Positions 1,263 through 25,854 of a DNA stretch of 64,000 bases are shown piece after piece; the stretch's first letter is position 1; every line of letters starts with the position of its first letter. The notes below the pieces were generated by a model that was not told the origin of the DNA, made no database searches, and saw only the letters and a program-made list of their open reading frames with translations. This DNA comes from an uncultured Planctomycetia bacterium (GTDB lineage: Bacteria > Omnitrophota > Gorgyraeia > Pluralincolimonadales > Pluralincolimonadaceae). A program made the translations under genes and the position numbers. The stretch covers positions 12,304-76,303 of the forward strand of contig CAZYUB010000005.1 of the NCBI GenBank assembly GCA_964650515.1. Reading direction: 5' to 3'.

Positions 1263-2096
1263 GTGGTCGACAGCCGCGGAAGGATGTTGACGAGGTACCA
1301 CATGCCGACGCTTAAGGAGCAGGGACGCCGAAAGGTGATATCGCGGCTTCTCGACGCAATAGGCGCTATATTATACGGTTCGGGCTATAAGGTCGGGGCG
1401 ATAGGGGTCGGCTGCCCCGGGCCTCTCGACAACAAAAGAGGGATCGTCCTTTCCCCGCCCAACCTTCCGGATTGGCGCGGAGTGCGCCTGAAGGAGACCA
1501 TCGAAAGGAGATTCCGCATCCCGGTGATCGTAGAGAACGACGCGAACTGCGCCGGCCTCGGCGAGGCGATAACCGGTGCTGGCCGCGGCGCCTCGAGCAT
1601 GGTCCTGCTGACGCTCGGGACCGGCATCGGCAGCGCGATAGTCCTCGACGGGAAGTTGTGGACAGGCAAAGGCGGGTTCGCCTCAGAGCTTGGCCACACC
1701 TCAATAGACGTCGACGGGCCGAAATGCGGCTGCGGTAACAGGGGATGCATAGAATTATACGCGTCTGCCACGGCTGTCGCGCGCCGCGGTAAAATGGAAG
1801 CGGAAAAGGTATTTCGCGCGGCTGCCAAAGGCAATAAGATCGCGCGCAAGGTAGTTGATGATACTGCGTATTACCTCGGCTGCGCGCTAGCGAACATAGT
1901 GAACGCGCTCGACCCGGAGGTGATAGTCCTCGCGGGAGGCATGGCGAAAGCCGGCCGAAGATTCATGGGCAAAGCAGAGAAAACAATGCGCGAAAGGGCT
2001 TTGAAAGAATCGTCAAGGGGAGTCAGGTTGGTTACCGCTAAACTCGGAGAAGACGCCGGACTGATCGGCGCCGCATGGAGGGCTAAGGGGCTATGA
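1263..2096 (+). CDS. ROK-family sugar kinase (glucokinase/fructokinase-like). The true start is probably upstream near 1218-1230, because the ROK N-terminal motif LGIDIGGTNIRLG is encoded in frame before the first ATG/GTG/TTG.
   Basis: It has the glycine-rich ATP-binding DIGGT motif and the ROK zinc motif CGCGNRGCIELYAS. See the finding on the missing canonical start. Confidence 0.8.
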   Translation: MVDSRGRMLTRYHMPTLKEQGRRKVISRLLDAIGAILYGSGYKVGAIGVGCPGPLDNKRGIVLSPPNLPDWRGVRLKETIERRFRIPVIVENDANCAGLGEAITGAGRGASSMVLLTLGTGIGSAIVLDGKLWTGKGGFASELGHTSIDVDGPKCGCGNRGCIELYASATAVARRGKMEAEKVFRAAAKGNKIARKVVDDTAYYLGCALANIVNALDPEVIVLAGGMAKAGRRFMGKAEKTMRERALKESSRGVRLVTAKLGEDAGLIGAAWRAKGL

Positions 2097-5138: not shown

Positions 5139-5768
5139 ATGGTAAAGATGCTCATGGTAATGGCGGTCATGGCTATGGTGCTGTGCCTTAACACCGCGGC
5201 GCATGCTACGGTCCAGTTCGATTTCGCTGCTGATACGCAAGGTTGGGCGGGCGAGGATTGGGGTTCGGGGCTTCCTGCTTTACAGCAGGTTTCGTGGTCC
5301 AAGGATCCCGCAACGGGGAGCCTCGAAGCAAGCACTTCAACCATGACGTATACGCGCGCTGACGGCTCCAACTGGGGCAAAGTATACCTTAAAAGTGATT
5401 TTTCCGCTTCGAAGAACCTGTCCGCAGAACCTCTCTACACGATGGATTTCTACGCTCCCGATAACATCTACTACGCGAAGGCAAAGCTCGGGGTAAGGAC
5501 AGGCGGCTCCTGGGACCTGACCGAATCGAGCGAGATAAGCTTAAATCCCGGCTGGAACACCCTCGTATGGGATATGAGCGGCGCCTCCAACCTTGCCGAC
5601 GCGAGACAGCTTGGCATCGAAGTGTCTGGATGGCTGCCGGTCACCGGCGATGCGAAATGGAATATCGATAACGTTGCGACAAATCCCGTCCCTGAGCCGT
5701 CGAGCATGCTGCTTCTCGGCGCGGGCCTCGCGGGAATATTCGGAGCAAGGAAGAGATCCTCGAAGTGA
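5139..5768 (+). CDS. PEP-CTERM-anchored secreted protein with an N-terminal CBM-like domain.
   Basis: 209 aa with a signal peptide. The C-terminus PVPEPSSMLLLGAGLAGIFGARKRSSK is a PEP motif followed by a TM helix and a basic tail. The N-terminus begins ATVQFDFAADTQGWAGEDWG. A GGGGG-type RBS lies upstream. Confidence 0.8.
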   Translation: MVKMLMVMAVMAMVLCLNTAAHATVQFDFAADTQGWAGEDWGSGLPALQQVSWSKDPATGSLEASTSTMTYTRADGSNWGKVYLKSDFSASKNLSAEPLYTMDFYAPDNIYYAKAKLGVRTGGSWDLTESSEISLNPGWNTLVWDMSGASNLADARQLGIEVSGWLPVTGDAKWNIDNVATNPVPEPSSMLLLGAGLAGIFGARKRSSK

Positions 5769-5798: not shown

Positions 5799-6464
5799 AT
5801 GATTATGATGAAGCGTATCCTCATTATTGCAGCTGTGTTATTGCTCGGTAATCCGGCGTTCGGCGCGACCCTGTATGACTTCGAATCGGGCACCGACGGC
5901 TGGACATTCCAGGATTATACCGACAGCCAGGCAATTTCCGCTGTCGCGCAGTCCTCGGCCCAGGCAAAATCCGGTTCTTACTCGTTGATGGGAACAGCGC
6001 ATCTCGTACCGGGCGACGCCAATTACAGCAAGGGCGAAGTACTGGTCAACAGGGGCGCGGCGAACACGTTGAACCTTAACGGGCTCCAGACGTCGGTATC
6101 CGTATTCGGACCTACGGGAGCGGCGGGAACCAACCCTTCGTCCCCCAACGGATGGCAGGTGTTCTTCAAAGACGCGAACTGGTTGTCATGGTACGGCCCG
6201 TGGACGAACATGACGGTCAACACATGGCAGACATTGTCAGTGACGCCCGGCGTGACGACCCCGGCATTCGTCGATTCCGGCTTCGACCCGACCCAGATAA
6301 TGGTCATGGGAGTGAAGCTCGGCACCGGCGGGGCCTCTACCGGCACCTATGACGGCGCGGTATACGTGGACCAGGTTAGCGTGGTCCCGGAGCCCGCAAG
6401 CATGCTTCTTCTCGGCAGCGGTTTGGTAGGCATCCTTGGTTTCGCGAGAAGGAAGAAGGCTTAA
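5799..6464 (+). CDS. PEP-CTERM-anchored secreted protein with an N-terminal CBM-like domain.
   Basis: 221 aa with a signal peptide. The C-terminus is VVPEPASMLLLGSGLVGILGFARRKKA. The N-terminus begins ATLYDFESGTDGWTFQDY. A GGAGGAGG RBS lies upstream. Confidence 0.8.
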   Translation: MIMMKRILIIAAVLLLGNPAFGATLYDFESGTDGWTFQDYTDSQAISAVAQSSAQAKSGSYSLMGTAHLVPGDANYSKGEVLVNRGAANTLNLNGLQTSVSVFGPTGAAGTNPSSPNGWQVFFKDANWLSWYGPWTNMTVNTWQTLSVTPGVTTPAFVDSGFDPTQIMVMGVKLGTGGASTGTYDGAVYVDQVSVVPEPASMLLLGSGLVGILGFARRKKA

Positions 6465-6516
6465 CAGGCAGTACAAACAAGGCGAGTATAAAAATGGCAA
6501 AGGGGGTATTAAAGCT

Positions 6517-8892
6517 ATGAGGAAAGTCGAAAAAGGCTTGCTCCCTCACCCGAAAATAGCTTTAATCACCCCCTTTGGCATTCCTCCACAGCGCCAGGGC
6601 GTGGCGCTTATAATGACGGTCGGCATCCTCGCGCTCATAACGCTCCTCGGCACGTCCTTCGCGATAAATATGTCCGCAGATTATAAAGGCGCCAGGAACT
6701 CCATCCAGGCCGTAAAGGCAAGGTACCTGGCGGAAGCCGGTATAAACAGGGCGGTCGCGGAGCTGCTCTACGGGGCGGAAGGTTTTACGAGCGACGCAAT
6801 CGATTCCTCGACGGAAGCATGGTCCGGGGCAAACCCGTATTCGGCGAATATAGGAAGCGACAACAGCGGGTATACCGTGACCGCAATATCCGATTGCGCG
6901 GGGCGCATCTTCATAAACGACATGAACCCGAACCTCAGGAACATGCTCGGCAGCCTTGCCGCGGCATGCGGGCTCGCGGCAGCCGACGGGCAGGCAATAT
7001 TCGACAACCGCCCGATAGGGGGGTATTCATCCGTCGAGGAGATAAAGACGGTCCCCGGCTTTACCCAGGTAAAATACGATGCGATATCCGATTCCATTAC
7101 TATCCACGCATATGTCGATCCTGATGTGTCGGCCGCAGCGCACCCGTATTCCGCGTCCCCGAGGGCGCCGGTCAACGTCAATACGGCCGGCAGGGAAGTC
7201 CTTATAGCGGTGCTCGGAGGAGTAAGCAACGGCGCAAACACCATCACATCCGCGGAAGCGGCATCGCTCGCGGACCACCTGATAAACGGCAGGCCTTATT
7301 CCACATACGACCAATTATTGGCGCGGCTGCTGACCGCTGAGACACTCGGTTATATATCGGACGGGGACGCGGCCGTCGCGATGGCCAACGCGAACCCGAA
7401 CACGGACATGATGTCCCTTAACCCGAATTATTCCTGGCGGTATAAACACGTATCAAAGGGGAATCCGAATGATGTCTCGGGATACGATGCCAACGGCCTC
7501 CCGTATGCCGTCGACAAGACATCGCTTTCAGCATATACGACGGAGTTTTCGTTCAACTCCGGCGGTTATTACGAGATAGAATCGGCCGGCATTGCCAGGA
7601 ACGCCGCAGGAATGCAGAATGCGGTAAAGAGGGTCAAGGCCTGCGTCAAGACCTTTGATATATGGCGTCAGACAACCCAGGCGCAGTTCGCGCTCGGGAT
7701 CCCGGCCAACACAGAGCTTTATCCTGAGCCGCCGGCGGTCGCCGCCGCGGCTTATGACGGCCAGGTGATGATATCGAGGATGCGCTCAACCACGCCTGCG
7801 GCTGGCGTCCCGCATTTCCTGCACAAGATGGACGGCCTGGACGCGGACAGCGCAGGCGGGAGCGCGGCAAGGACCAGTTTCGCATGGGTCCCCCTTAACC
7901 CGAACCTCGCAAGCGTGATAGACGCCGCCGATCCCGGCAACGTATTCCCCGACGGGCTCTTCTTCCCGAGGGACGACGCGACTACGAACTACTGGTTCAG
8001 GCCGGAGGGCAACATCGATTCCGCGGACGGCACGCTCGAGATATGGTTCAAGCCGAACTGGCAGTACCACTACGCGACCTTCAACAACGCGTGGCATTCC
8101 GCGAAGGTCTTCGAGGCGCAGGATAGGGGCACCGGGGGCGGCGGGTCGAACTGGGGCAACGCCTCTATGGATATCTATATTGCCGCCGACGACGACACGA
8201 TCCGCTGGAGGATAAACAACAAGAACGGCACGCAGTACACGATGCAGGCGGCGATGCCGAACACCTGGAAGCCGGGTACATGGCACCACATAGCGATAAC
8301 GTGGGATTACGAGGATTTCCTGAACGACCCCGCGCGCGCCCAGACGTTCTATATCGACGGCGCGAGCGTCATGTCATGGAACATAAAGGACGCGCCGAAA
8401 CAGTTCCTCGGGGATAACGGCCTCGAGTTCGGCTGCGATACGCCGTACCAGGAGCCGCCGAACGCGACTTACGGGGAGGTAAGGATATTCGCGTCAAGCG
8501 GCGCGACATCTCCCGGCATGGATTACGCGGCCGGGGTATATTACGATGTAGGCGACGCGGAGTTCCTGTCTTCCGCGAATACGCTCGGCACAGTCAGGTT
8601 AGGGACTCTGTCATGGACCGAGCATACGGCGGATGCCGCGGGAAACCCGGTCGTCCCGGGCGCCGACCTGACGTTCGACATATTCGACGGCGCGGCATGG
8701 CTCGGCAACAGCGCGGGCAGGTCGAACCCGGCGGGCAACCCGCTCGACGCGGTGACCGGAGGCGCGGGCGCGGTCCGATACAGGGCGTATTTCATCGAGA
8801 CAGGCAGCGGCCTCTTCGATACCCCTGTCCTCGACGACGTGACGATAACGTATTTCAGCAGGGCCGAGATGCTTTATTGGAGGGAGTTGTAG
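6517..8892 (+). CDS. GspK-like type II secretion / pseudopilin-family protein fused to a large C-terminal extension containing a LamG (concanavalin A-like lectin) domain.
   Basis: The N-terminus has a GspK-like hydrophobic segment (QRQGVALIMTVGILALITLLG) and two helix-hairpin-helix motifs characteristic of GspK (APVNVNTAGREVLIAVLGG and GGYSSVEEIKTVPGFTQVKYDAI). The C-terminal half has LamG-like segments (LEIWFKPNWQYHYATFNNAWH...WHHIAITWDYED...FYIDGASV). The start was taken at the ATG at 6517, which has an AGGGGG RBS. The ORF track starts at 6436, and an in-frame GTG at 6601 is also possible. Confidence 0.55.
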   Translation: MRKVEKGLLPHPKIALITPFGIPPQRQGVALIMTVGILALITLLGTSFAINMSADYKGARNSIQAVKARYLAEAGINRAVAELLYGAEGFTSDAIDSSTEAWSGANPYSANIGSDNSGYTVTAISDCAGRIFINDMNPNLRNMLGSLAAACGLAAADGQAIFDNRPIGGYSSVEEIKTVPGFTQVKYDAISDSITIHAYVDPDVSAAAHPYSASPRAPVNVNTAGREVLIAVLGGVSNGANTITSAEAASLADHLINGRPYSTYDQLLARLLTAETLGYISDGDAAVAMANANPNTDMMSLNPNYSWRYKHVSKGNPNDVSGYDANGLPYAVDKTSLSAYTTEFSFNSGGYYEIESAGIARNAAGMQNAVKRVKACVKTFDIWRQTTQAQFALGIPANTELYPEPPAVAAAAYDGQVMISRMRSTTPAAGVPHFLHKMDGLDADSAGGSAARTSFAWVPLNPNLASVIDAADPGNVFPDGLFFPRDDATTNYWFRPEGNIDSADGTLEIWFKPNWQYHYATFNNAWHSAKVFEAQDRGTGGGGSNWGNASMDIYIAADDDTIRWRINNKNGTQYTMQAAMPNTWKPGTWHHIAITWDYEDFLNDPARAQTFYIDGASVMSWNIKDAPKQFLGDNGLEFGCDTPYQEPPNATYGEVRIFASSGATSPGMDYAAGVYYDVGDAEFLSSANTLGTVRLGTLSWTEHTADAAGNPVVPGADLTFDIFDGAAWLGNSAGRSNPAGNPLDAVTGGAGAVRYRAYFIETGSGLFDTPVLDDVTITYFSRAEMLYWREL

Positions 8893-12842: not shown

Positions 12843-12886
12843 CTGTTACCGATAACATTGACAAATCCCGGTTCATCGTGTAAACT
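12843..12886 (+). promoter_or_regulatory. LacI-type palindromic operator CTGTTACCGATAACAT (12843-12858) overlapping a sigma70-type promoter (TTGACA at 12858-12863, 17-nt spacer, TAAACT at 12881-12886).
   Basis: Read from the sequence. The reverse complement of this 16-mer occurs upstream of the second LacI gene at 21505-21520. Confidence 0.5.
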
Positions 12887-12907: not shown

Positions 12908-13933
12908 ATGAAACGTTTCGAAAAATCCAGCATAACGATAAAAGACATAGCCAAAAAGGCGGGCGTCGCGCACTCTACGGTCTCTCTTGTTATGAACGAC
13001 CGCGAACACGTGTCGCCGAAGCTGCGCGAGAAGATCTTAAAGATCGCGAACGAGATGGGCTATATGCCCAACATGGTCGCGCGCAGCCTCATCAGCAAGA
13101 AATCCTCCACGGTCGGCGTCGTATTCCCCGAGAACCCGCACTTCTTCACGATAACGTACTTCCTTATGATAATAGAGGGCATCCAGAACGCCTGCAAGAA
13201 GTACAACCGAGCGCTTATGTTCTTCTCGCTCGACCAGACGAAAGGCGAGTCGTATTACCAGATATCCCGCAAATGGCTGATAGACCTGATGATAATAATG
13301 AACGTCGACTACACGAGGGACATCTCAAAAGATATCCAGGACCTGCGCGATAACGGCATATACTTCTCGTTCCTGACGAAATACCTCGGCAAGGAGAAGG
13401 TCAATTCGGTCTGCGTCGATAACTACGAAGGCGTGCGGCTCGCTCTCGAATATTTGGCCTCGCAAGGCCACAAACGGATCGGTTTCATCGCCGGCAACCC
13501 GAACTCGGCGGACGGCCCGGAGAGGTTCCAGGCATATAAGTCGCTCTCGAAGAAATTCGGGTTCGACCAGGACGAAGATCTCATAGCGCAGGGCGATTTC
13601 ACTTTCGAAAGCGGCGAGCGCGAGATGCCGAAACTCCTCGGCCTCAAGAAACGCCCGACGGCGGTCTTCGCCGCGAGCGATTACATGGCGATAGGCGCGA
13701 TGCGCGTGATAAAGGAGCAGGGCCTCTCGATACCTAAAGATATCGCCGTCATGGGGTTCGACAATACGCTCGAAGCCGCGTACGTAGAGCCGGCCCTTAC
13801 GACGGTAAGGCAGCCGCTGCAGGAGATGGGGGAGAAGGCCGTCGACCTCGCGATACGCTCTATGAACGACGAGAATTTTGAACCACAGACGCTTGCCATC
13901 AAACCGGAACTCATAAAGAGACAATCATGCTAA
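12908..13933 (+). CDS. LacI-family transcriptional regulator.
   Basis: The N-terminal HTH reads ITIKDIAKKAGVAHSTVSLVMN. A periplasmic-binding-protein-like sugar-binding fold follows. 341 aa. Confidence 0.85.
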   Translation: MKRFEKSSITIKDIAKKAGVAHSTVSLVMNDREHVSPKLREKILKIANEMGYMPNMVARSLISKKSSTVGVVFPENPHFFTITYFLMIIEGIQNACKKYNRALMFFSLDQTKGESYYQISRKWLIDLMIIMNVDYTRDISKDIQDLRDNGIYFSFLTKYLGKEKVNSVCVDNYEGVRLALEYLASQGHKRIGFIAGNPNSADGPERFQAYKSLSKKFGFDQDEDLIAQGDFTFESGEREMPKLLGLKKRPTAVFAASDYMAIGAMRVIKEQGLSIPKDIAVMGFDNTLEAAYVEPALTTVRQPLQEMGEKAVDLAIRSMNDENFEPQTLAIKPELIKRQSC

Positions 13934-16900
13934 AGATCCGCTTTAACCCATTGGTGTATTATGCCCTTTTCATTTTAGCGGTCTTCGCCGCGCCGGTATT
14001 CGCGGAAGACGCGGCCGCCGCCGCAAACATGACGCAGGGCCCGACTTTCGAGGTAAAACAGGTCGACGGCGTCAACGTCCCGTTCCAGAACGGCATACCT
14101 TTCCCGTCGTGGGAGAGGCAGGAGCGCGCATACGTGGACCTCAACGGCAACTGGAAGACGCAAAGGCAGAAAGCCGACCATAAGCTCACGCTGTATAAGA
14201 GGACGCTGGATAATATCACGCTTGTCGAGCAGGAAGGCGGCGGAAGGCACGGCGCCGGATACGATGATTCCGCGTGGAAAGAGAAAGCCATACCCGGCGT
14301 CGAGAACCCGGCTCCGGACAGGTATATGGACGGCGCATGGTACAGGCGGCATTTCAGCGTTCCGGCGGACGCGGCCGGAAAATACGTCAAACTTATGTTC
14401 GAGGCCGCGAACTATTTTACGGATGTCTGGGTCAACGACAAATGGGTCGGCTGCCATGAAGGCGGATATACGCCGTTCGCGTTCGATGTGAGCCCTTACC
14501 TCAATTACGGAAAGGATAACGTCATAGCCGTGCGGGTCGACAACATACCGTGGATCCCCAACGGCGACTCCTCGAAGGAGGCGCAGGCGACAAACGACCA
14601 TAACATAATCCCGTATGCTACCGGCGACTGGTGGAACTACGGCGGCATAACGAGGAACGTATATCTCGAGATATCGCCGGCCGTATCGGTCGTGCGCGCG
14701 GATGTCCGCTCGAAACCCTCGGGCGAGAAGGACTCCGAGCTGGCAGTCGAAGCGGTCGTTTATAACCGCAGCGGCGAGGAAGTCACGGCGACGGCGGGGG
14801 TCAGGGTCCTGTCGACCGGCATAAAAGATAAGAATATCGGCGAACTTTCGGTCAAGAAGGTCGCCACGAGCAAGACGATGCCCGTCCAGGGCGAGGCCTC
14901 GAAAGAGATAACGCTGAAGCCCGGCGAAGTGCGCGCGATAAGCTTCTCGCTGAAGTCGGGCGCGCTGAAGCACTGGTCGCCGGAGTCGCCGAACCTCTAT
15001 GTCCTGCAGGTCACCCTCGGGGATAAGAAGAAGAAATTCGACGAACTTTATACGCAGTTCGGCGTCAGGGAGGTCCGCGTCGACAAGGACAGCCCGAAGG
15101 TCCTGCTAAACGGCAAAGAGGTATTCTTGCGCGGCATAGCCAGGCACGAGGCATTCTACGGGGAGCCCGGCCCGGGAGAGTTCGGGGCCCCGAGGATCAT
15201 CGAGGATTTCAAACTGATCAAGGAAGCGAACGCGAATTTCGTCAGGACCGCGCATTACCCGAACGAACAGCAGACGTATTCCATAGCGGACAGGATGGGA
15301 TTGCTCGTGTGGGAGGAGATCCCGGTATTCTGGTTCGGCGGGCCCGAGTTCGTGATCCAGAAAAATGTGCGCGGCATCGCGAGGCAGATGTGGCTCGAGA
15401 TGATATACCGCGATTACAACAGGCCGTCTATAGTCATCTGGAGCACCTGCAACGAGTGCAGCTGGCAGAAGGAGAGGGCTGAATTCATAAAAGATCTGAA
15501 GGATAACGCGCAAAAAGCCGACGGCACCCGCCTCGTCGCGCAGTCGGCTTCAGGAAGCGACCCGACGGACCCGACCCAGAAGGAATGCGACATCATCGGG
15601 TTCACTACCTATTACGGAATATTCTACGGAAGCTCCTATTATTCCGACACGAAGGAAGCGCTCGAGAAGACGCGCAAGGCCTTTCCGGGTAAACCGGTGA
15701 TCTCCACCGAATACGGCATCTGGTCCGCTTACGGCGACGTTCCGCAGGAGAAGGTCCAGATAGAGGTCGCGAAGGATACGTTCGCGGCGTTCGCGGAGCT
15801 CCCGTATGTCACCGGCGCTGCGTGGTGGACGATCGCGGATTGGCATACGATGATAAACGAGCCGCAGCATATGGGCCTGCTGACGATAGACAGGAAGTTC
15901 CAGAAGCCCGTATATTTCCAGGTACAGCGCCAGTACGCGATGCTCCTCGGCGACCTTTCCGTCGGCATGAAAGAGCCGAAAGACGAGGAGACCGTAAAAG
16001 GAAAACTGAATATATCCGCCGAGATAACCGGCAAGGAGAAGCCTGAATTCGTCGACCTCATTGTGGAAGGGAAACAGCTCGGGCGCCTCTCTCAGAAGAA
16101 GGGCGTATACCAGATGGAGTTCGATACCGCCAAGATAGAGGACGGCATGAGGACCCTGATCGTGCGCGCGAAGAGCAAGAAAGGATATTTCGTATCCGAT
16201 TTCGTAAGGGTCAATGTCGATAATACCGATGAACCGCCTCTCCTCGGCATAGCGCTGAAGGACGGCGACCTCGTCATGGGCAAGGTGCTGCTGAGCGTGT
16301 CCGCGTCGGACGACAGGGCCGATCCGGTAGTGACGTATTCCGTGGACGGCGCGGAGCCGGAAAAAATGGCGAGCAGGGTAGAGGGTTCCTACCAGGCCGA
16401 ATGGGATGTCTCGGCGTTGGCCGACGGGTCGGAACACGAGATAAGGTTCCGCGCGGCCGATTCGGGCGGGCAGGCAGCGGAACGCAGCGTCAAGGTAAAG
16501 ATAGACGGCAAGCCGGGCAAATACGTCGACCTGCCGTACGACCACGACTGGATATCGGAGAACGGCAGGTATACTGACGGGACCGGATGGGATTACGCCG
16601 CCGAGGACCTGCCTGCATCCAATTCGGAGTTCATATATAACGGAAAGGACAGGGTCAAATTCAGGTTCGGGGACAAATCCGACGGGGCGAAGAATACGGT
16701 AGAGTGCGGCAAGCAAAAAATAACTTTTGCGCCCGGCTATTACGGCAAGGTCCATATACTCGCTGCGATGCATGACGGAGGCGCGAAGGTCCCGTTCCTG
16801 CTGAACTATACGGACGGGACGCAAGGGAAGGCCCTCGCGGGGTTCTCCGACTGGTGGGGCGCCAACGCGGTCTTCGGGGAAGACATAGCGATAAAGACAT

Positions 16901-18507
16901 CACACCACCACGAGGCGAGCGGCGAGCGCAAGCCCGGTTCGGGGATATATATGCAGACGATAGAGCCGGACAGCAGGAAGGTCCTCTCGTCGATAACGCT
17001 GCCGTCCGAGCCGAAACTGCATATCTTCGCGATGACGCTCGAAGGGGAGGTGTCGAACGATGCGATACCGGAGCCGTCGATAACAGCGCCGCAGGCCAAC
17101 TCCTCAGTGGGCGATACCGTGAAGGTCGAGGTCGAGGATAAAGAGGATGATATCGCGAAGGTGGAATATTCGGTCGACTCCGGGGCCTGGGTGCAAATGA
17201 AAGCCGTCGGCGGGGGCAGGTATACCGCCGAATGGGATACGTCAAAGGCCGAGGGGATAAACCACACGATAACGGTGAAGGCTACGGACAAGATAGGCCA
17301 GATAAATACGAAGTCCGTCGAGGTCAGGGTCGTGAACAAGGTCACGATAATATTCCCGTTCGAGGGCGCGAGCATCTACAGGACCGCGACACTGATGGTC
17401 GAGCCGAGGGCGAACCGGGAGATAGAGAAGATAGAGTATTCCGTGGATAACGCGGAGTTCACGCAGTTGTCGCCGTCGGGGATGGGCCTCTATACGGCCG
17501 AATGGGACACGGAGGGCTATAAGGCGGGTTCCGGCCATGTGCTCATAGTCAGGGAGTACGAAAAAGGCGGCGGCGTCACGATAGATACGGTCAAAGTCAC
17601 CGCGGACTCGATAAAGGTCATGATAGCCGAACCGCTGAAAGGCCATTCGATCAAGGTCGACAAGAGCATCCGCGACTGGAAAGGCGAGGCCCCGTCGCAG
17701 GACAATACGGCCACTGTCAATAACGGGGAGTTTATCTGGAAGGACGAGAAGGGCGACGACACCGGCAACGGCCATTATACGTACCCGACGAACAAGGCCG
17801 TCAGCAGGGGCTCCGATCTCAGGGAGTTCCGGATCACATGGGATAATGAGAACCTCTATATGCTTATAAAATGCGACAGGCCCGGTGATTTTTGGGCTCC
17901 TTACAGGATAATAGGGATAGATACCGACGGCGCGAGGGGCGGTAAGGGCGGCTCGCAAGTACTCGCGATCGGCGATATGGATGATGTCAGCCCGGACAGG
18001 GGCTGCTACGGCGAGATAAAGGTCGCGCCGGAGCTCGCGTGCGAATTTACGGTTGGAATATTCAATTCATACAAAGGCAGGATATGGGGGTCGGACGGCA
18101 AGCTCATAGCGTCCAAGGAAGCCAAGCCGGATGATACTCCGGGATTCATGGTCGATGATTACGGCTGGAGTTCGGTCGAGGTAGCGATACCGTGGAAGAT
18201 ACTCGGCGGAGCGCCCCCGTACGGCCAGACATGGAGGTTCGTCGTCGGCATCGGCCAGCAGGATAACGATGTATTCAGGGAGATAGAAAAGGATGCTTCC
18301 GAGTGGCGCGGAGGCGGCGGCGAGTCGAGCGATATGTTCGGGCCCGACCCGGACGTATTCGATCTCGCAAGCCCTGACAGGAAGACCCAGGAATATGAAC
18401 TTCGCAGCTATGATGCACAGGGCGAGCCGGGTAACCCGGACGGCTTTGCTGTTATAAAGAGATCATACCTTGTTGTGACCTTCAGCGAGGAGAAGCCGGC
18501 CAAGTAG
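13927..18507 (+). CDS. Giant secreted GH2-family glycosidase (beta-galactosidase/beta-glucuronidase/beta-mannosidase-like) with four Ig-like repeats, an unknown beta-sandwich domain and a C-terminal module of about 300 aa that is paralogous to the three downstream proteins.
   Basis: 1526 aa with a signal peptide. It has the GH2 sugar-binding domain (WYRRHFSVPADAAGKYVKLMFEAANYFTDVWVNDKWVG), the acid/base motif IWSTCNEC and the nucleophile motif ISTEYG. Repeats of about 90 aa share a Y..EWD motif. The C-terminal module begins around 17611. Confidence 0.8.
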   Translation: MLKIRFNPLVYYALFILAVFAAPVFAEDAAAAANMTQGPTFEVKQVDGVNVPFQNGIPFPSWERQERAYVDLNGNWKTQRQKADHKLTLYKRTLDNITLVEQEGGGRHGAGYDDSAWKEKAIPGVENPAPDRYMDGAWYRRHFSVPADAAGKYVKLMFEAANYFTDVWVNDKWVGCHEGGYTPFAFDVSPYLNYGKDNVIAVRVDNIPWIPNGDSSKEAQATNDHNIIPYATGDWWNYGGITRNVYLEISPAVSVVRADVRSKPSGEKDSELAVEAVVYNRSGEEVTATAGVRVLSTGIKDKNIGELSVKKVATSKTMPVQGEASKEITLKPGEVRAISFSLKSGALKHWSPESPNLYVLQVTLGDKKKKFDELYTQFGVREVRVDKDSPKVLLNGKEVFLRGIARHEAFYGEPGPGEFGAPRIIEDFKLIKEANANFVRTAHYPNEQQTYSIADRMGLLVWEEIPVFWFGGPEFVIQKNVRGIARQMWLEMIYRDYNRPSIVIWSTCNECSWQKERAEFIKDLKDNAQKADGTRLVAQSASGSDPTDPTQKECDIIGFTTYYGIFYGSSYYSDTKEALEKTRKAFPGKPVISTEYGIWSAYGDVPQEKVQIEVAKDTFAAFAELPYVTGAAWWTIADWHTMINEPQHMGLLTIDRKFQKPVYFQVQRQYAMLLGDLSVGMKEPKDEETVKGKLNISAEITGKEKPEFVDLIVEGKQLGRLSQKKGVYQMEFDTAKIEDGMRTLIVRAKSKKGYFVSDFVRVNVDNTDEPPLLGIALKDGDLVMGKVLLSVSASDDRADPVVTYSVDGAEPEKMASRVEGSYQAEWDVSALADGSEHEIRFRAADSGGQAAERSVKVKIDGKPGKYVDLPYDHDWISENGRYTDGTGWDYAAEDLPASNSEFIYNGKDRVKFRFGDKSDGAKNTVECGKQKITFAPGYYGKVHILAAMHDGGAKVPFLLNYTDGTQGKALAGFSDWWGANAVFGEDIAIKTSHHHEASGERKPGSGIYMQTIEPDSRKVLSSITLPSEPKLHIFAMTLEGEVSNDAIPEPSITAPQANSSVGDTVKVEVEDKEDDIAKVEYSVDSGAWVQMKAVGGGRYTAEWDTSKAEGINHTITVKATDKIGQINTKSVEVRVVNKVTIIFPFEGASIYRTATLMVEPRANREIEKIEYSVDNAEFTQLSPSGMGLYTAEWDTEGYKAGSGHVLIVREYEKGGGVTIDTVKVTADSIKVMIAEPLKGHSIKVDKSIRDWKGEAPSQDNTATVNNGEFIWKDEKGDDTGNGHYTYPTNKAVSRGSDLREFRITWDNENLYMLIKCDRPGDFWAPYRIIGIDTDGARGGKGGSQVLAIGDMDDVSPDRGCYGEIKVAPELACEFTVGIFNSYKGRIWGSDGKLIASKEAKPDDTPGFMVDDYGWSSVEVAIPWKILGGAPPYGQTWRFVVGIGQQDNDVFREIEKDASEWRGGGGESSDMFGPDPDVFDLASPDRKTQEYELRSYDAQGEPGNPDGFAVIKRSYLVVTFSEEKPAK

Positions 18508-18522
18508 GGAAAGGTCAGGAAG

Positions 18523-19458
18523 ATGGTAGTGCTAGCGGTCGTGCTGTTGTTGTTGTGCCCGTCCCTGGGTTGCGCGGAAGCCATAGGAAGTACCCCGTTC
18601 ACGGGGCATAAGATAGAAGCTGACAAATCGTTCTCTGACTGGAAGGGTGTCGCGCCTGAGGCCGAGAATACCGCGGCCATCAGCGAAGGCGAGTATATAT
18701 GGAAGGACGCCGTCGGCGACGATACCGGCAACGGGAAGTATACCTATCCTCTCGATAAAGCCCTGAAGAAGGGCGCGGACCTGAAGGAGTTCAGGGTCAC
18801 GTTCGATGACGATAACCTTTACTTTCTCGTAAAGACGAACCGTCCCGGCGACTGGTGGACGCCCTACAGGGTGATAGGCATTGACACCGACGGGGCTTCC
18901 GGAGGCACGGGCGGAATGCAGGTGTTGGCCGAGGGCGACCTGGATACGTTATCGTCGGATTCGGGGACATACGCGGAGCTGAAGGTCGCGCCGGAACTCG
19001 CGTGCGAATACGTCGTGGCGCTCTCATCTACGTACAAGGGCCGTATATGGGATGTGAACGCGAAGCTTGTCGCGTTCAGGGACGACCAGCCGGAGGATAC
19101 GCCCGGGTTCAAGATCGCGGACATAAACTGGAACACGATCGAGGTCGCGATACCGTGGGCGCTGATAGGGGGCAAGCCGCAGGGCAAGGCATACAGGTTT
19201 ATAATCGCGGTGGGGCAGCAGGACGGCGACACTGCCAGGGAAATTCACGAAGTCGCCAGCGAATGGCACGGAGGAGGTGGTGAGACGAGCGACGCCGGCG
19301 GTGTAGATCCCGACGTATACGACCTGGCTGGCGCTGAGCGCGCAGTCCAGGAGAAGGAGCTGGGAAGTTTCAGGATGAGCGCTCCGCCCGGGGACACTGA
19401 GGGCTTCGCTACGATAGACAAGTCATATCTGACGGTCTATTTTGGCCCGAAACAGTGA
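18523..19458 (+). CDS. Secreted paralog B of the GH2 C-terminal module (function unknown; possibly glycan-binding).
   Basis: 311 aa with the signal peptide MVVLAVVLLLLCPSLGCAEA. An RBS (GGAAAGG) lies upstream. It shares every family motif. Confidence 0.7.
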   Translation: MVVLAVVLLLLCPSLGCAEAIGSTPFTGHKIEADKSFSDWKGVAPEAENTAAISEGEYIWKDAVGDDTGNGKYTYPLDKALKKGADLKEFRVTFDDDNLYFLVKTNRPGDWWTPYRVIGIDTDGASGGTGGMQVLAEGDLDTLSSDSGTYAELKVAPELACEYVVALSSTYKGRIWDVNAKLVAFRDDQPEDTPGFKIADINWNTIEVAIPWALIGGKPQGKAYRFIIAVGQQDGDTAREIHEVASEWHGGGGETSDAGGVDPDVYDLAGAERAVQEKELGSFRMSAPPGDTEGFATIDKSYLTVYFGPKQ

Positions 19459-19486
19459 ACCGATAATAAAACAGGAGGTGGTCAGA

Positions 19487-20425
19487 ATGAGAAGGGTATT
19501 GGTAGTTTTGGTTGCGGCGCTGGCGTTCTGCCCGGTCTGGACAGCAGCCAATGCCGAAGACGTCGCCGTGAACGGCCATAAGATAGCGGTCGATAAGGCG
19601 ATACGCGACTGGAAGGGCGTCGCTCCCGAAGCGGATAACACCGCCGCGGTAAGCGAAGGCGAGTACATATGGAAGGACGCCTCAGGCGATGACGCGGGGA
19701 ACGGCAAGTATGCATACCCGCAGAACAAGGCCCTGAAGAAGGGCGGAGACCTGAAGGAGTTCAGGGTCACGTTCGATAACGAGAACCTGTACTTCCTTAT
19801 CAAGACCGACAGGCCCGGCGACTGGTGGGTGCCTTACAGGATAATAGGCATAGATACCGACGGCGCTTCAGGCGGCAAGAACGGCAGCCAGGTGCTCGCG
19901 CAGGGCGACATGGACGAATATGCCTTTGATTCCGGCTGCTTCGCCGAGTTGAAAGTATCTCCGGAACTCGCGTGCGAATACGTAGTCGCGGTATCCTCGA
20001 CGTATAAGGGCCGCATATGGGACGCGAAAGGCAAGATGATAGCGCGCAAGGAAGCCCAGCCCGATGATACGGCCGGCTTCAAGATAGAGGATTACAACTG
20101 GAACGCGGTCGAAGTCGCGATACCGTGGTCGCTGGTAGGCGGCAAGCCCGCCGAAGGCACGTCCTGGAGGTTCGTGGTCGCGATAGGCCAGCAGGATAAC
20201 GACCTCGCTCGCGAAGTCGAAGAGGAAGTAAGCGAATACCGCGCAGGCGGCGGAGAATCGAGCGAAGATAACGGCGTCGATCCGGACGTGTTCGACCTCG
20301 CGGGCGCGGATAAGGCGACCCAGGAGAAGGAGCTCGGCAGCTACAAGGCCGACGGAGAGCCGGGAGACGCGGGCAGTTTCGCGACGATAGACAAATCGTT
20401 CCTTACGGTCAAGTTCGGCAAGTAA
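19487..20425 (+). CDS. Secreted paralog C of the same module.
   Basis: The ATG at 19487 is preceded by an AGGAGG RBS. The ORF track starts at a TTG at 19442, which overlaps the upstream gene. The signal peptide is MRRVLVVLVAALAFCPVWTAANA. It is about 70% identical to paralog B. Confidence 0.7.
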   Translation: MRRVLVVLVAALAFCPVWTAANAEDVAVNGHKIAVDKAIRDWKGVAPEADNTAAVSEGEYIWKDASGDDAGNGKYAYPQNKALKKGGDLKEFRVTFDNENLYFLIKTDRPGDWWVPYRIIGIDTDGASGGKNGSQVLAQGDMDEYAFDSGCFAELKVSPELACEYVVAVSSTYKGRIWDAKGKMIARKEAQPDDTAGFKIEDYNWNAVEVAIPWSLVGGKPAEGTSWRFVVAIGQQDNDLAREVEEEVSEYRAGGGESSEDNGVDPDVFDLAGADKATQEKELGSYKADGEPGDAGSFATIDKSFLTVKFGK

Positions 20426-20506
20426 GGGCGGCGTAAAGATTGCCGGGAGTGCGGAAGGATTGATCAGGGAATCCTTCCGCACGAACGTGCGAGAAAGGAC
20501 GGGAGG

Positions 20507-21466
20507 ATGACAAAAAAGACGGCAGTATACGTCATTTTCGTCGTAGCTCTTTCATTCTGCGATTTCCTATCCGCCGATATGGGCAGCGGTTCGTTGACGG
20601 GCCATCCGATAAGGGTGGATGGGTCGGTTGCCGATTGGACAGGTACCCCGCCATCCAAGCCAAACTCTTCCGTCATAAGCAAGGGCGAATTCATCTGGAA
20701 GGACATTCAGGGAGACGATACGGGGAACGGGAAATACACATACCCGAAGACCCCCGCATTCACGAAATCCGCGGATCTCGAAGAATTCCGCATCACGTGG
20801 GACAGCAAGAATATTTATTTCCTGATAAGGTCATCGAAGCCGGGCGACTGGTGGTCCCCCGTGCGCGTGATAGCGATAGATACCGACGGCATGGGCGGAG
20901 GCAGGAGGGGCATGCAGGTCATCCAGCAAGGCGATATAAATACGATGGATGCCGATACCGGCACTTTCGGCGAACTCAGGGTATCGAAGTCGCTCTCGGC
21001 CGATTATGTCATATGCATAGCCGGCACGTATAAGGGACGCATCTGGGACGCGCAGGGAAGGCTCATAGCTAAGGCGATAGGGGAGAAGACCGATACGAAA
21101 GGATTCAAAATAAAGGATTCAAACGCGGTCGCGCTCGAGGTGCAGGTCCCGCTGAAGATAATAGGTAACCCCGCAGGTAAGACCTGGAGGTTCGTGGTTG
21201 CCATGGGGACGGAAGACAAGGAGCACCTGCGCGAGATATACAAGGAAGCGGATGACTGGCACGGCGGCGGCGGCGAAGCGACGACCTCCGACGACGGGGT
21301 AGACCCGGACTATTTCGACCTGGCAAGCCCGGACCAGAACACGCAGGAGATAGAGCTCTCAAGTTATAAGCCGAATGCGCCGGCCGGGGATACGTCGGCG
21401 TTCGCGGAGATAAAGAAATCATTCCTGCAGGTGAAGTTTTCCCCCTACATGCAGGTTGCGAAGTAA
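20507..21466 (+). CDS. Secreted paralog D of the same module; this is the most divergent copy.
   Basis: 319 aa with a signal peptide. It keeps the GEFIWKD..GDDTGNGKYTYP, IAIDTDG, TYKGRIWDAQG, WRFVVAMG and WHGGGGE motifs. Confidence 0.65.
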   Translation: MTKKTAVYVIFVVALSFCDFLSADMGSGSLTGHPIRVDGSVADWTGTPPSKPNSSVISKGEFIWKDIQGDDTGNGKYTYPKTPAFTKSADLEEFRITWDSKNIYFLIRSSKPGDWWSPVRVIAIDTDGMGGGRRGMQVIQQGDINTMDADTGTFGELRVSKSLSADYVICIAGTYKGRIWDAQGRLIAKAIGEKTDTKGFKIKDSNAVALEVQVPLKIIGNPAGKTWRFVVAMGTEDKEHLREIYKEADDWHGGGGEATTSDDGVDPDYFDLASPDQNTQEIELSSYKPNAPAGDTSAFAEIKKSFLQVKFSPYMQVAK

Positions 21467-21476
21467 ATAATCGCTC

Positions 21477-21520
21477 TTGACAAATCCGCCGCCGATGGTA
21501 TTATATGTTATCGGTAACAT
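21477..21520 (+). promoter_or_regulatory. Sigma70-type promoter (TTGACA at 21477-21482, 16-nt spacer, TATTAT at 21499-21504) followed by the LacI-type operator ATGTTATCGGTAACAT (21505-21520), just upstream of the second LacI gene.
   Basis: Read from the sequence. The operator is the reverse complement of the 12843-12858 site with one mismatch. Both promoters share the 11-mer TTGACAAATCC. Confidence 0.5.
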
Positions 21521-21523: not shown

Positions 21524-22537
21524 ATGAAGAAAGTCACGTTCAAAGAGATATCCAAGATCGTAGGCGTATCGCCGATGCACGTATCGCGCGCGTTGGCGGG
21601 CCATCCGTATGTCAAGGAAGAGCTCAGGCGCAGGATATTCAAGGTCGCCAAGCAGCTCAACTACAGCGTGAACCCGTTCGGGCGGGGCCTCTCCAAGAAT
21701 ATCCAGATGAAGGCAAGGATGATATGCCTCCTCACTAAATACGATAATTTCTTCCAGACGGAATATTTCATAAACCTGACCGACGCGATTAGCAACAGCG
21801 CGAGGTCGAAAGGCTACGACATAATAATCGTGAGTTTGGGCGACGACGAGGCGGGTAACATCAAGAGGCTCAAGAACCTTATAAATTACTATGAGGCGGG
21901 GATAATCGAGGGTTTCGTATTCATCGCGCCGGCGATGGGCGCGAAGGAAGGCCTCTTCCTGCACGGGGAGAAGGCCAACCTCGTATGCGTAGGCGGCAAG
22001 CTCGAGGCCGATACGAAATACATCGACGTGGATAATTTCGAGGCGGGATACGAAGCCGCCGCGTACCTTGCGGACCTCGGTCACAGGCGCATCGCGTTTG
22101 TAGGCGGGTTTGAGGACAGGTATGACACGCAGGACAGGAGGCAGGGTTTCATGAACTGCCTGCGTATGAAGGGCATTGAGCCGGATCCAGGGCTCATGCT
22201 GGACGGGCGTTACGATAAGGCCGGCGGGAAGAAAGCGACCGCGGAACTCTTCTCGAAGGGCCGCAGCGCGGACGCCGTCTTCTATACGAACGACCTTATG
22301 GCTTTCGGAGGAATGGAATATTTCAAGGAGAACGGGATAGCGGTCCCGCAGGATGTGTCGATAGTAGGCTTCGATGACCTTATGGCCTCGGCAAGCGCGG
22401 AACCGCCCCTGACGACTTCAAGGCAGCCTTACGAGGAGATGGGCAAGGCGGCCGTCGAGTCGCTCCTGCAGAAAGGCACGGTATCGAGGAAGATCCCTGC
22501 AAAGATGATAATAAGGAAGAGCTGCGCGAAACAATAG
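21524..22537 (+). CDS. LacI-family transcriptional regulator (second copy).
   Basis: HTH: VTFKEISKIVGVSPMHVSRALAGHP. A sugar-binding domain follows. 337 aa. Confidence 0.85.
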   Translation: MKKVTFKEISKIVGVSPMHVSRALAGHPYVKEELRRRIFKVAKQLNYSVNPFGRGLSKNIQMKARMICLLTKYDNFFQTEYFINLTDAISNSARSKGYDIIIVSLGDDEAGNIKRLKNLINYYEAGIIEGFVFIAPAMGAKEGLFLHGEKANLVCVGGKLEADTKYIDVDNFEAGYEAAAYLADLGHRRIAFVGGFEDRYDTQDRRQGFMNCLRMKGIEPDPGLMLDGRYDKAGGKKATAELFSKGRSADAVFYTNDLMAFGGMEYFKENGIAVPQDVSIVGFDDLMASASAEPPLTTSRQPYEEMGKAAVESLLQKGTVSRKIPAKMIIRKSCAKQ

Positions 22538-22554: not shown

Positions 22555-25500
22555 ATGGGGAAAGCACCGGCATACAAACTCGGGCAGGACAACGAATTCA
22601 TAATCGAAAATTATAACCACTCGAAACCGTTCTCGAGTTTCCTGCCGGGCATTGCGGGCCTCGACGGCATCCCGATGTGGACGTTCTATGTTAACAGGAA
22701 CCAGGCGGTCTGCAGTTTCGGCATCGAGGGCAAGGACCGCTCGATGATGGAGTACTTTCCCGCGAATTTCGCTTACCAGCTCGTCGGCTCGCAGGGATTC
22801 AGGACATTCATAAAGATCGCCTCCAAGGGCGGATTTGTGTTATATGAGCCGTTCCGCACCTACGAGAATGAAGAGCCGTATGTACCGGCCCAGACGATGG
22901 TTATCAACCCGTACTCCGTCACGCTGAAGGAAGAGCATAAGAGATACGGCCTCAGCGTCGAGGTCAGGTACTGCAACGTGGTAGGCAAGCCGTTCCCGGG
23001 GCTAATTAGGCGCCTCGAGGTCAGGAATATCTCCGGGAAGGCGCTGAAGTACGAGCTTATAGACGGCATGCCCCAGGTCATACCCTTCGGCATGGACGAC
23101 TACAGCCTGAAGAGGATGAAATACCTCGTGAAGTCGTTCAGCTTCGTAGAGAACCTTGACGGCAAAATACCCTATTTCCATATAAAGACGACGCATGAGG
23201 ACGGCCCCGAGGTCGCGATGGTAAGGCGCGGCCACTATTACGCGTGCTTCAGGCCGGAAGGCAAAGGCATGGAGCTCATAAGGCCGATGGTGGATGCCTC
23301 GCAGATCTTCGGCATGCGGAAGGATTTCATCTTTCCGCAGGCCTTCAATGTCAGGAAGAAATTCTCGTACGACCGCAAGGGAGAGCTTACAAGCGGCGAA
23401 TTCGCGTGCGCGATGTGCTACGATACCGGGACGCTGGGCAAAGGCAAGGCCCTTGAGCTGACGTCCGTCGCGGGCACGGTCGATTCGCTCTCCGACGTAT
23501 CGAAGGTAAAAGCGGCGGTCACCGCCGATTTCATGGAGGTGCAGCTCGCGAAGAACAAGGCGCTCATCGAGTCGCTGATGGCAAGGTCCCTTGTGATAAG
23601 CGAGGACCGGCGCTTCGACAGGTATTCGTCGCAGAACTTCCTCGATAACGTGCTGCGCGGAGGCCTGCCCATACCAGTGACCGATGACCGCAGCAAGATA
23701 TTTTACGTCTATTCGAGGAAGCACGGCGACCTCGAGAGGGACTATAACCAGTTCTACACCTCCCCGACGGAATACTCGCAGGGGGACTCGAATTACAGGG
23801 ACGTGAACCAGAACAGGCGCAACGACCTCTTCTTCAATCCCGACGTAGGGATGGCGAACATCGTCAATTACATAGGGCTGATACAGCTCGACGGGTTCAA
23901 CCCGCACGGCGTCGGCGGCATAACTTACAGGTACAAAGGAAGTCCGGAAGACCTCCGGCAACTCTTCGGCTCCCGCGCCGGTGACGCCGCGGAATTCTTC
24001 GGCAAACCGTTCGCGCCGGGAGATCTTTTCAAGTTCATGGAATGCAATTCGCTGAAGGCGGGAATGCCTAAGGAGAAACTGCTGTCGCGCGTGCTCGAGA
24101 AGTCGGAGACGATCCAGAACTCGCAGCATATAGAAGGATACTGGAGCGACCACACCTTCTATAACCTCGACCTGATAGAGAGCTTCCTCGCGATATATCC
24201 CGACAGGAGGAAGGAACTCTTCTTCGGGGCCAAGCTGTTCACGTTCCATGACAGCACCTATGTCGTGATGCCGCGCGACGAGAAATATGTCGTCTGGGAC
24301 GGCAAGCCGGTGCAGCTCGGCAGCGTGAGGCCGGACGAGGAAAAGAAGAAGATGATCGCCGACAGGAGGTCCGACAAGACGCTCGTGCGCAAGACGGACG
24401 GCAAGGGCGACGTCTACAGGACCGACCTCATCACCAAATTGTTCATACTTGCGGTCAACAAGATAAACTCGATAGGCCCGGACGGATGCGGCATCGAGCT
24501 TGAGACCGATAAGCCGAACTGGTATGACGCGCTGAACGGGCTTCCGGGCATGTTCGGCTCCTCGTCGAACGAGACGTTCGAGCTGAAACGGCTCATATCC
24601 GTGATAACAGATAACCTGGGCGGCGCAACGCTCGAGATACCGGAAGAAGTGGCCGATGTCGTAAGGGATTCGAAGGATGTGCTCGGCGGTTTCGTGGAAG
24701 GCAGGCTCGATGACTTTGCCGCCTGGGACAGGCTCACGTCGCTCAAGGAAGAGTTCAGGAAGAGGACGAAGCTCGGTATCATAGGCCGCCTGATCCCGGT
24801 GCCGGCGGAAGAGATAAACGGGTACCTAAACCTCGCCGCGAAGCGCGTTCAGGCGGCGATAAACAAGAGCTTCGACGAGAAGTCAGGGCTCTTCTCGGGG
24901 TATTTCATGAATACGCCGGTCGAGTACGACCAGATAACATATACGGGGGCGGACGGCAGGGAGACGCAGAAGCTGAATTACAAGGGCCTGCCGTGCATAA
25001 AGGTCTCAAGGTTCGAGTCGAAACCTCTGCCGCTCTTCCTCGAGGCGCAGGTCCACGCGCTCAGGGCGGAGAAGGACCCCGCGGTTGCGGCAAAGCTTCA
25101 CCGCAACCTGATGAAGAGCGCGCTCGTCGACAAGGAGCTCAAGATGTTCTTCGTGAACGCCTCGCTCGCGGGCATGCCGTATGAGATAGGCAGGACGAAG
25201 ACGTTCAACCCCGGATGGCTCGAGAACCAGTCGATTTGGCTGCACATGGAATACAAGTATATGCTCGAGCTGTTGAAGGCCGGGCTCTACGATGATTTCT
25301 TCGCTAACATGAAGAACGTGCTCGTGCCGTTCCTGAAGCCGGAGGTCTACGGCAGGAGCGTATTCGAAAATTCGTCTTTCATAGCGAGCAGCGCGCATCC
25401 CGACAGGAAGGTGCACGGCCAGGGTTTTTACGCGCGCCTTTCGGGTTCCACGGCAGAGTTCGTCCACATGTGGCTCATAATGATGACCGGCGGCAGGCCG

Positions 25501-25854
25501 TTCGGGCTCGACAATGACGGGAAGCTCTCGTTCAGCCTCTGCCCGGCGCTCCCGAAGGATATGTTCCTGAAGAAAGACCGGAAGGCCTGTTATTACCTGC
25601 CGGACGGGACGCTCATAGAAGAGACCGTGAAGAAGGGGACCATCAAGTTCATGCTGCTCGGAAGCATTCCCGTGACATATCACAATCCTAAGATGAAAGA
25701 TATATTTGGGGCCGTTGAGGGAAAGGCGCAGGTAAGGTACGAAGTGACGCCGGATGAAGGCAAGACAGGGACTTTTGCCGGAAAGGTCCCCGAGCCGTAT
25801 TCGGCGATGATAAGGGACAGGAAAGTAAAGGAGATAAAAGTCTTCTTTAACTGA
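22555..25854 (+). CDS. Large cytoplasmic GH94-like glycoside phosphorylase, a candidate (alpha/alpha)6-barrel enzyme of the cellobiose/chitobiose/beta-glucan phosphorylase type.
   Basis: 1099 aa with no signal peptide. The segment QGDSNYRDVNQNRRND resembles the GH94 RDSNQD motif. The segment DKPNWYDALNGLPGMFGSS resembles the GH94 catalytic WND(A/C)LN region. The assignment comes from motif memory only. Confidence 0.45.
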   Translation: MGKAPAYKLGQDNEFIIENYNHSKPFSSFLPGIAGLDGIPMWTFYVNRNQAVCSFGIEGKDRSMMEYFPANFAYQLVGSQGFRTFIKIASKGGFVLYEPFRTYENEEPYVPAQTMVINPYSVTLKEEHKRYGLSVEVRYCNVVGKPFPGLIRRLEVRNISGKALKYELIDGMPQVIPFGMDDYSLKRMKYLVKSFSFVENLDGKIPYFHIKTTHEDGPEVAMVRRGHYYACFRPEGKGMELIRPMVDASQIFGMRKDFIFPQAFNVRKKFSYDRKGELTSGEFACAMCYDTGTLGKGKALELTSVAGTVDSLSDVSKVKAAVTADFMEVQLAKNKALIESLMARSLVISEDRRFDRYSSQNFLDNVLRGGLPIPVTDDRSKIFYVYSRKHGDLERDYNQFYTSPTEYSQGDSNYRDVNQNRRNDLFFNPDVGMANIVNYIGLIQLDGFNPHGVGGITYRYKGSPEDLRQLFGSRAGDAAEFFGKPFAPGDLFKFMECNSLKAGMPKEKLLSRVLEKSETIQNSQHIEGYWSDHTFYNLDLIESFLAIYPDRRKELFFGAKLFTFHDSTYVVMPRDEKYVVWDGKPVQLGSVRPDEEKKKMIADRRSDKTLVRKTDGKGDVYRTDLITKLFILAVNKINSIGPDGCGIELETDKPNWYDALNGLPGMFGSSSNETFELKRLISVITDNLGGATLEIPEEVADVVRDSKDVLGGFVEGRLDDFAAWDRLTSLKEEFRKRTKLGIIGRLIPVPAEEINGYLNLAAKRVQAAINKSFDEKSGLFSGYFMNTPVEYDQITYTGADGRETQKLNYKGLPCIKVSRFESKPLPLFLEAQVHALRAEKDPAVAAKLHRNLMKSALVDKELKMFFVNASLAGMPYEIGRTKTFNPGWLENQSIWLHMEYKYMLELLKAGLYDDFFANMKNVLVPFLKPEVYGRSVFENSSFIASSAHPDRKVHGQGFYARLSGSTAEFVHMWLIMMTGGRPFGLDNDGKLSFSLCPALPKDMFLKKDRKACYYLPDGTLIEETVKKGTIKFMLLGSIPVTYHNPKMKDIFGAVEGKAQVRYEVTPDEGKTGTFAGKVPEPYSAMIRDRKVKEIKVFFN

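Follow-up and report, generated by a model that had tools for sequence, protein, structure and literature searches.

What do three secreted, free-standing proteins of just over 300 amino acids (aa) do directly downstream of a giant glycosidase that carries a fourth copy of the same module at its own C-terminus? The arrangement lies in a stretch of 64,000 nucleotides (nt) of contig CAZYUB010000005.1 (assembly GCA_964650515.1), from an uncultured bacterium of the Omnitrophota; we refer to this whole 64 kb stretch as the window. An initial annotation, made from the sequence alone, had described a tandem family of four paralogous modules that it could not assign to a family, and had proposed that they capture or present glycans in the manner of SusE/F proteins. 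Here, we find that the modules are a known accessory domain, Glucodextran_C (PF09985), with an ordinary, non-catalytic beta-sandwich fold resembling carbohydrate-binding module (CBM) family 9 and DOMON domains. We favor the reading, at a probability of roughly 0.6, that they are exported, non-catalytic carbohydrate-binding or enzyme-associating modules that act outside the cytoplasm together with a probably co-transcribed enzyme of glycoside hydrolase (GH) family 2.

Four copies of one exported module

The enzyme and the four copies, A to D, are as follows:

13927..18507, + strand: exported GH2 enzyme, 1526 aa (open reading frame (ORF) and Pfam)
17635..18486, + strand: copy A, Glucodextran_C/DOMON-like, fused to the GH2 as residues 1237-1520 (PF09985, E 5.8e-20; 49% identity to D)
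18523..19458, + strand: copy B, free-standing, with signal peptide, 311 aa
19487..20425, + strand: copy C, free-standing, with signal peptide, 312 aa; AGGAGG lies 8 nt 5' of the ATG at 19487
20507..21466, + strand: copy D, free-standing, with signal peptide, 319 aa; an ancient paralogue, always last in the array

All four copies can be aligned over their full length; the four-way alignment has a mean column identity of 70%, and about 100 of its columns are invariant. BLASTP expectation values from 6e-91 to 3e-109 agree with the four-fold paralogy originally described: B and D are 50% identical (E 3e-109), and GH2 residues 1237-1520 are 49% identical to D (E 6e-91), a span that places the fused copy at about 17635..18486, near the boundary of 17611 first given. 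The gradation of similarity had also been judged about correctly, since signal-peptide-trimmed alignments give protein identities of 70% for B-C, 65% for A-C, 57% for A-B and 49-52% for D against the others. B and C can indeed be aligned as DNA (70% identical in a codon alignment).

Each free copy appears to be translated and exported by itself, as first suggested; an RBS-like (ribosome-binding-site-like) purine run precedes every start, and the N-termini of B, C and D, like those of more than 40 homologues, resemble Sec/signal-peptidase-I substrates when judged by eye. For copy C we took the ATG at 19487, with its AGGAGG RBS, as the start, whereas the mechanical ORF begins at TTG 19442. A lipoprotein reading of the Cys in the signal peptides of B, C and D was rejected, because homologues place this Cys at -3 of AxA cleavage sites and not at +1. 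Inspection of B, C and D revealed no lipobox, PEP-CTERM signal, type IX secretion system (T9SS) tail or transmembrane anchor, so that the proposed surface presentation finds no anchor on these copies in the window. Across all clades, 34 positions are kept; they are rich in Asp/Glu/Arg and Trp/Tyr, with W40, W112, Y73 and Y100 among them, and none is a Met, His, Lys or Cys.

The modules belong to the Glucodextran_C family

A Pfam search matched PF09985 to all four copies with E from 6e-20 to 3e-23, at 80.4-82.8 bits for the free copies and 72.2 bits for the GH2 tail against a cutoff of 22 bits. Pfam describes the family as the "C-terminal binding-module, SLH-like, of glucodextranase". Homologues are proteins of about 310 aa, nearly all from metagenome-assembled genomes (MAGs) of Omnitrophota and at best 94% identical; among the matches listed, all 120 homologues carry the PF09985 annotation, and several bear the NCBI name "glucodextranase DOMON-like domain-containing protein". 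A profile search of 1.84 billion representative proteins returned 647 relatives, 41 of them at E<=1e-30, including free-standing proteins of 300-450 aa as well as giant multidomain proteins.

Structure prediction pointed to the same family. The AlphaFold2 model of copy B, built from a 48-sequence alignment, reached a predicted local distance difference test (pLDDT) score of 91.7 and a predicted template modelling (pTM) score of 0.89. The top structural match of this predicted model is domain C of glucodextranase, and Foldseek agrees. A DxxGDDxGxGxYxYP motif is common to the modules and to residues 781-795 of 1ug9. Sequence matches in the PDB are weak: the 48-sequence profile found 1ug9 only marginally (E 0.94) and a single-sequence phmmer search against the PDB returned nothing relevant. 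The link to glucodextranase therefore rests on the Pfam hidden Markov model (HMM) and on structure.

These are two of the checks that the initial annotation had called for, HMM search and structure prediction with structural search, and both lead to the family of the glucodextranase C-terminal domain. The module can thus be assigned to a family after all; this confident match removes any novelty of fold and leaves the duplication unaffected. The faint CBM9/DOMON appearance noted earlier is in line with the Pfam family, with the structure search and with a subthreshold CBM9_1 (PF06452) match over the EFRxTxDxxNLY strand (residues 86-104; 15.5 bits against a cutoff of 23.4). By the sequence threshold the modules do not belong to CBM9, by sequence and starch-degrading context they do not belong to CBM74, and NCBIfam holds no model matching B, C or D. 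A haem-binding DOMON of the cytochrome b type was considered and rejected, as the axial ligands (Met plus His/Lys) are not conserved. An arrangement in which the module ends a glycoside hydrolase and follows an Ig-like domain is seen in A, which a Big_7 domain precedes, and not in B, C and D; the region before A resembles Glucodextran_B only weakly (E 0.14). Free-standing PF09985 members also occur elsewhere in the family.

The pairing of enzyme and module recurs across genomes

At least 10 contigs from Omnitrophota MAGs carry an identical locus; the closest contigs share 94% identity in protein sequence. Loci of related order (numbered with the prefix L) encode a substrate-binding protein (SBP), two permeases, a LacI-type regulator, the GH2::module fusion, two to three free modules, usually a second LacI, a GH161-like protein and a GH35 enzyme. 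A free member of the tight subfamily occurs in roughly 32 loci, and in about 29 of these its gene immediately follows a gene of the same GH2 lineage; of the rest, L023 is cut at the contig start, and L027 and L031 are exceptions. In L004, L021, L024, L025, L026 and L028 the GH2 lacks the tail (about 1045-1066 aa; L026 is cut at the contig end) and is followed by one or two free copies. The presence of the same enzyme with and without a fused copy reads as a fusion/fission pattern.

A second lineage, L029-L035, from MAGs labelled Elusimicrobia, Clostridia or unclassified, encodes GH2::module, a free module, an SBP, another free module and permeases (for example L030 8976..12230), so that one module lies within the transporter operon. 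In a Spirochaetes MAG, a 498-aa protein (L037 526..2022) consists of a module (32% identical) followed by a T9SS C-terminal sorting domain and is encoded about 1.1 kb upstream of a GH2; its T9SS tail implies surface display of that module.

Neighbor-joining (NJ) trees with 100 bootstraps recovered a D clade (100/100), a fused-tail clade of the window's group (99/100) and a clade of B/C-type free copies (90/100). B and C, from both the window and L001, group as sisters (77/100), a placement indicative of a lineage-specific duplication at a later date. In related MAGs a different paralogue brings the number of free copies to three (100/100), and orthologues are more alike than paralogues. The NJ clades lend support to the successive local duplications originally proposed, not to their being recent, since both the identities and the trees make them old. 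Comparison of these sequences thus supports a history of successive, local and old duplications in which copy number appears to have been maintained.

The fused enzyme

The GH2 protein comprises, in order, a signal peptide, the GH2 N-terminal, Ig-like and TIM-barrel domains (to about residue 672), Big_7 domains, an AziU2-like insert and the Glucodextran_C module; its translation contains the acid/base motif CNE and the nucleophile motif TEYG. Read against the motifs of E. coli GUS, the enzyme appears to be without the N-x-K motif by which beta-glucuronidases recognize a carboxylate. Identity between distant orthologues is 52-60% in the tail, 47-50% in the catalytic part and 40-43% in the middle Ig region, and by these figures the constraint on the tail appears unusually strong for an accessory module.

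The middle region at about 16580..17050 (residues ~885-1040) has no Pfam domain and matches AziU2/Azi28 (PDB 7wuw and 8gs1, E 5e-8). These are azinomycin-pathway proteins, unexpected kin for a glycosidase insert.

The TAG stop codon of the GH2 gene and the start of B share one frame, with five sense codons between them (18505..18525). Read-through of this TAG, which would give a GH2 with two tandem modules, was rejected; a shared frame has a 1-in-3 chance, and B is equipped with an RBS and a signal peptide of its own. The shared frame is probably coincidental.

A predicted LacI-controlled transcription unit

The module block is flanked by, or contains, the following elements:

12844..12857, + strand: LacI-type operator O1, TGTTACCGATAACA, an exact 14-mer abutting the -35 box of P1
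12858..12886, + strand: promoter-like P1, TTGACA-17-TAAACT, 10/12 consensus matches
12908..13933, + strand: LacI-family regulator 1 (PF00356, PF13377), overlapping the GH2 start by 7 nt
20449..20482, + strand: perfect 13-bp GC-rich stem-loop in the C-D spacer, without a T-run; minimum free energy (MFE) -35.3 kcal/mol, z -5.2
21477..21504, + strand: promoter-like P2, TTGACA-16-TATTAT with a TG extension, 11/12 matches, the best in the region
21506..21519, - strand: operator O2, the reverse complement of TGTTACCGATAACA, directly downstream of the P2 -10 box
21524..22537, + strand: LacI-family regulator 2

The window contains the 14-mer exactly twice, against a chance expectation of 0.15, and O1 and O2 each touch one of the two best sigma-70-like promoters of the region; P1 and P2 are consensus matches only. 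Two LacI genes with the same operator, flanking the block within a glycan-utilisation locus, had been recognized at the outset, and this description holds. A scan of the + strand from P1 to 21466 found no terminator-like site. LacI-1, GH2, B, C and D therefore probably share the LacI-controlled promoter P1, and P2 would serve LacI-2, the GH161-like gene and GH35.

The stem-loop between C and D has counterparts in the same spacer of seven related loci (L001, L002, L006, L010, L012, L013 and L016), which differ in sequence. Possible roles are attenuation within the operon or control of mRNA stability, either of which would tune how much D is made. A search against Rfam matched no RNA family in the module block; its sole match in the 64 kb is a tRNA gene (50332..50402).

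The transporter at the locus is of the ATP-binding cassette (ABC) type, with an SBP, whose lipobox reads LPGC, and two permeases. Downstream of LacI-2, a GH161-like phosphorylase (22555..25854, 1099 aa) has no Pfam match and is a homologue of PDB 9qqk (E 4e-196); its gene keeps this position, beside LacI-2 and GH35, in those related loci whose sequence continues far enough downstream. Neither the GH161-like nor the GH35 enzyme has a signal peptide. Neither redox-partner genes nor alpha-glucan enzymes were found at the locus.

Discussion

We propose that the GH2 and the modules act together outside the cytoplasm, with one copy in cis and the others in trans. The modules would bind the glycan substrate of the GH2 or its products. 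A free copy is retained even beside GH2s without a tail, so non-covalent association with the enzyme is probable as well. Substrate would in this way be concentrated for hydrolysis, the lipoprotein SBP and ABC transporter would then import the products, and the cytoplasmic GH161-like phosphorylase and GH35 beta-galactosidase would complete degradation. Glycan capture is plausible from this context. Sugar binding is further supported by its occurrence in the structural relatives CBM74 and CBM9, by the kinetics of a GH65 enzyme, and by the conserved acidic and aromatic residues of the modules: CBM74, a structural neighbor, binds long glucan helices (bioRxiv 10.1101/2022.11.20.514607), and deleting the Glucodextran_C D-domain of MdDDE (GH65) altered its kinetics on alpha-glucan chains (PMC10074034). 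That the paralogues are internally conserved yet mutually different suggests that they may have split ligands or interfaces among themselves.

Several observations weigh against this proposal. Sugar binding had not been shown for any Glucodextran_C domain as of 2023 (PMC10074034), and the domain is otherwise known mostly from alpha-glucan enzymes (GH15, GH49, GH65, GH57, GH13), not from GH2. The modules are conserved to the same degree as the catalytic domain or more, which is unusual for a CBM, and co-transcription is read from gene spacing and consensus scans only. In addition, the free copies in L031 (5267..6208) and L027 (1413..2375) stand in a ComEC-module-Mem_trans-BamD context with holA and uvrC nearby, and hence the module is not strictly dedicated to GH2. 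The genome with this housekeeping copy, Ca. Kappaea frigidicola, also has a GH2-linked copy (L024).

The same strong conservation of the modules, together with the Rosetta-stone pattern of fusion and fission between GH2 and module, the conserved residues peculiar to each paralogue clade and a copy number kept at two to three through independent duplications, is what one might expect if the modules were mainly protein-protein assembly subunits. They would then dock on the GH2 or its fused copy, as parts of a hetero-oligomeric holoenzyme or as folding aids, with glycan binding secondary or absent; the literature documents a beta-sandwich domain that aids folding of a GH15 catalytic domain (PMC11327188). 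This is the main rival explanation. We nevertheless consider it unlikely as judged from these sequence patterns, since the nearest structural relatives of known function, CBM74 and CBM9, bind sugar, and since one copy lies away from any GH2. Retention in the cell envelope is a weaker rival, and a distinctly improbable one, in which the modules would bind an envelope polysaccharide, with A keeping the GH2 at the surface and the free copies forming part of the envelope. The "SLH-like" label of PF09985, the copy amid ComEC, a membrane transporter and BamD in L031/L027, and the presence of the domain in archaeal and giant multidomain surface proteins all speak for it. However, the free copies have nothing to tether, no true surface-layer homology (SLH, PF00395) signal was found in the modules, and the tight linkage to GH2 within an ABC-transporter operon points to nutrient acquisition. 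It also counts against envelope retention that such an anchoring role for domain C of glucodextranase was reportedly proposed by Mizuno et al. in 2004 and is not known to have been demonstrated.

The many invariant acidic residues (E57, E89, E207 and D267) could instead belong to redox or haem-binding DOMON domains or to cryptic enzymes, the least credible of the explanations considered. Met, His, Lys and Cys are not conserved across clades, His29 of the GH motif is missing in several free copies, the locus offers no redox partners, and no glycosidase with this fold is known; neither haem binding nor catalysis is likely. Binding or GH2 association outside the cytoplasm remains our preferred reading.

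Of the systems to which the modules can be compared, domain C of Arthrobacter globiformis glucodextranase (PDB 1UG9/1ULV), the founder of PF09985, is the closest. It belongs to the same family, shares the DxxGDDxGxGxYxYP motif and, like copy A, lies C-terminal to Ig-like domains on a glycoside hydrolase. The modules are only about 16-18% identical to it, however, and here the partner is a GH2 and not a GH15/GH49/GH65 alpha-glucan enzyme, three copies are free-standing and secreted, and the subfamily is about 70 residues longer than the 228-position Pfam model through extra N- and C-terminal strands. CBM74 of Ruminococcus bromii Sas6 (PDB 7UWU/7UWV) offers a functional parallel, as Sas6 is likewise a non-catalytic binder that works beside enzymes, yet there is no significant sequence similarity and CBM74 is starch-specific and part of a dockerin-bearing amylosome protein. 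The subthreshold match to CBM9 (Thermotoga maritima Xyn10A CBM9-2, PDB 1I82) covers the EFRxTxDxxNLY strand, and the module is about 100 residues larger. The E-x-R of this strand may correspond to the sugar-contacting Q-x-R of CBM9, which we take as a lead only. CBM9 holds reducing-end sugars in a clamp of two Trp residues; the aromatic positions kept in every clade of the modules include W40, W112, Y73 and Y100. SusE and SusF of Bacteroidota are also non-catalytic beta-sandwich proteins encoded beside the glycosidase and transporter that they serve. The analogy drawn in the initial annotation nonetheless fails as stated, since the modules have no lipobox or other anchor, are single and not tandem domains, occur with an ABC and not a SusC/D transporter, and show no homology; the broader notion of a non-catalytic binder whose gene adjoins that of its enzyme survives.

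The domain has been reported on GH15, GH49, GH65, GH57, GH13_49 and GH53 enzymes, and no description of GH2 fusions or of a free-standing paralogue array was found in the limited corpus of literature searched. What is new here is therefore the cis-plus-trans pairing with one GH2 lineage in Omnitrophota, which is modestly unusual and amounts to a refinement of annotation, not a discovery. Glucodextran_C is widespread on glycoside hydrolases, yet has neither a demonstrated ligand nor a CAZy CBM number. The present subfamily is a convenient test case: it is small, soluble, naturally stand-alone and secreted, has a confident model and an obvious partner enzyme, and lies in a probably LacI-controlled operon. 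Identifying its ligand would annotate hundreds of proteins and clarify how uncultured Omnitrophota acquire glycans. A bolder and doubtful extension is that the free copies are obligate trans partners of this GH2 lineage, either in a multi-subunit "GH2 + DOMON-like" holoenzyme or in a relay that passes glycan from the enzyme to the ABC binding protein. If this were true, PF09985 would become a new CBM family with beta-glycan specificity, and one cis copy with two or three specialized trans copies would represent a mode of glycan capture in Omnitrophota and related MAGs comparable to SusE/F without membrane anchors.

Neighboring genes

Upstream of the module block the window begins with a gene resembling GH130 mannoside phosphorylases (286..2096) and a ROK kinase gene. 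Two small secreted proteins (5139..5768 and 5799..6464) end in PEP-CTERM signals, VPEP(S/A)SMLLLG...(K/R)(K/R), and share an N-terminal (F/Y)DF(A/E)xxTxGW that loosely resembles the W-D/E-G-F-E repeats at both ends of a DUF5060 protein (2093..4924). This pair may represent surface-anchored glycan binders. Just upstream of the ABC transporter lies an 818-aa pseudopilin-like protein (6436..8892) with PilX_N and T2SSK signals and a Laminin_G_3 domain. L001 has a comparable gene ahead of its locus, and the protein may be tied to secretion of the GH2 and its modules.

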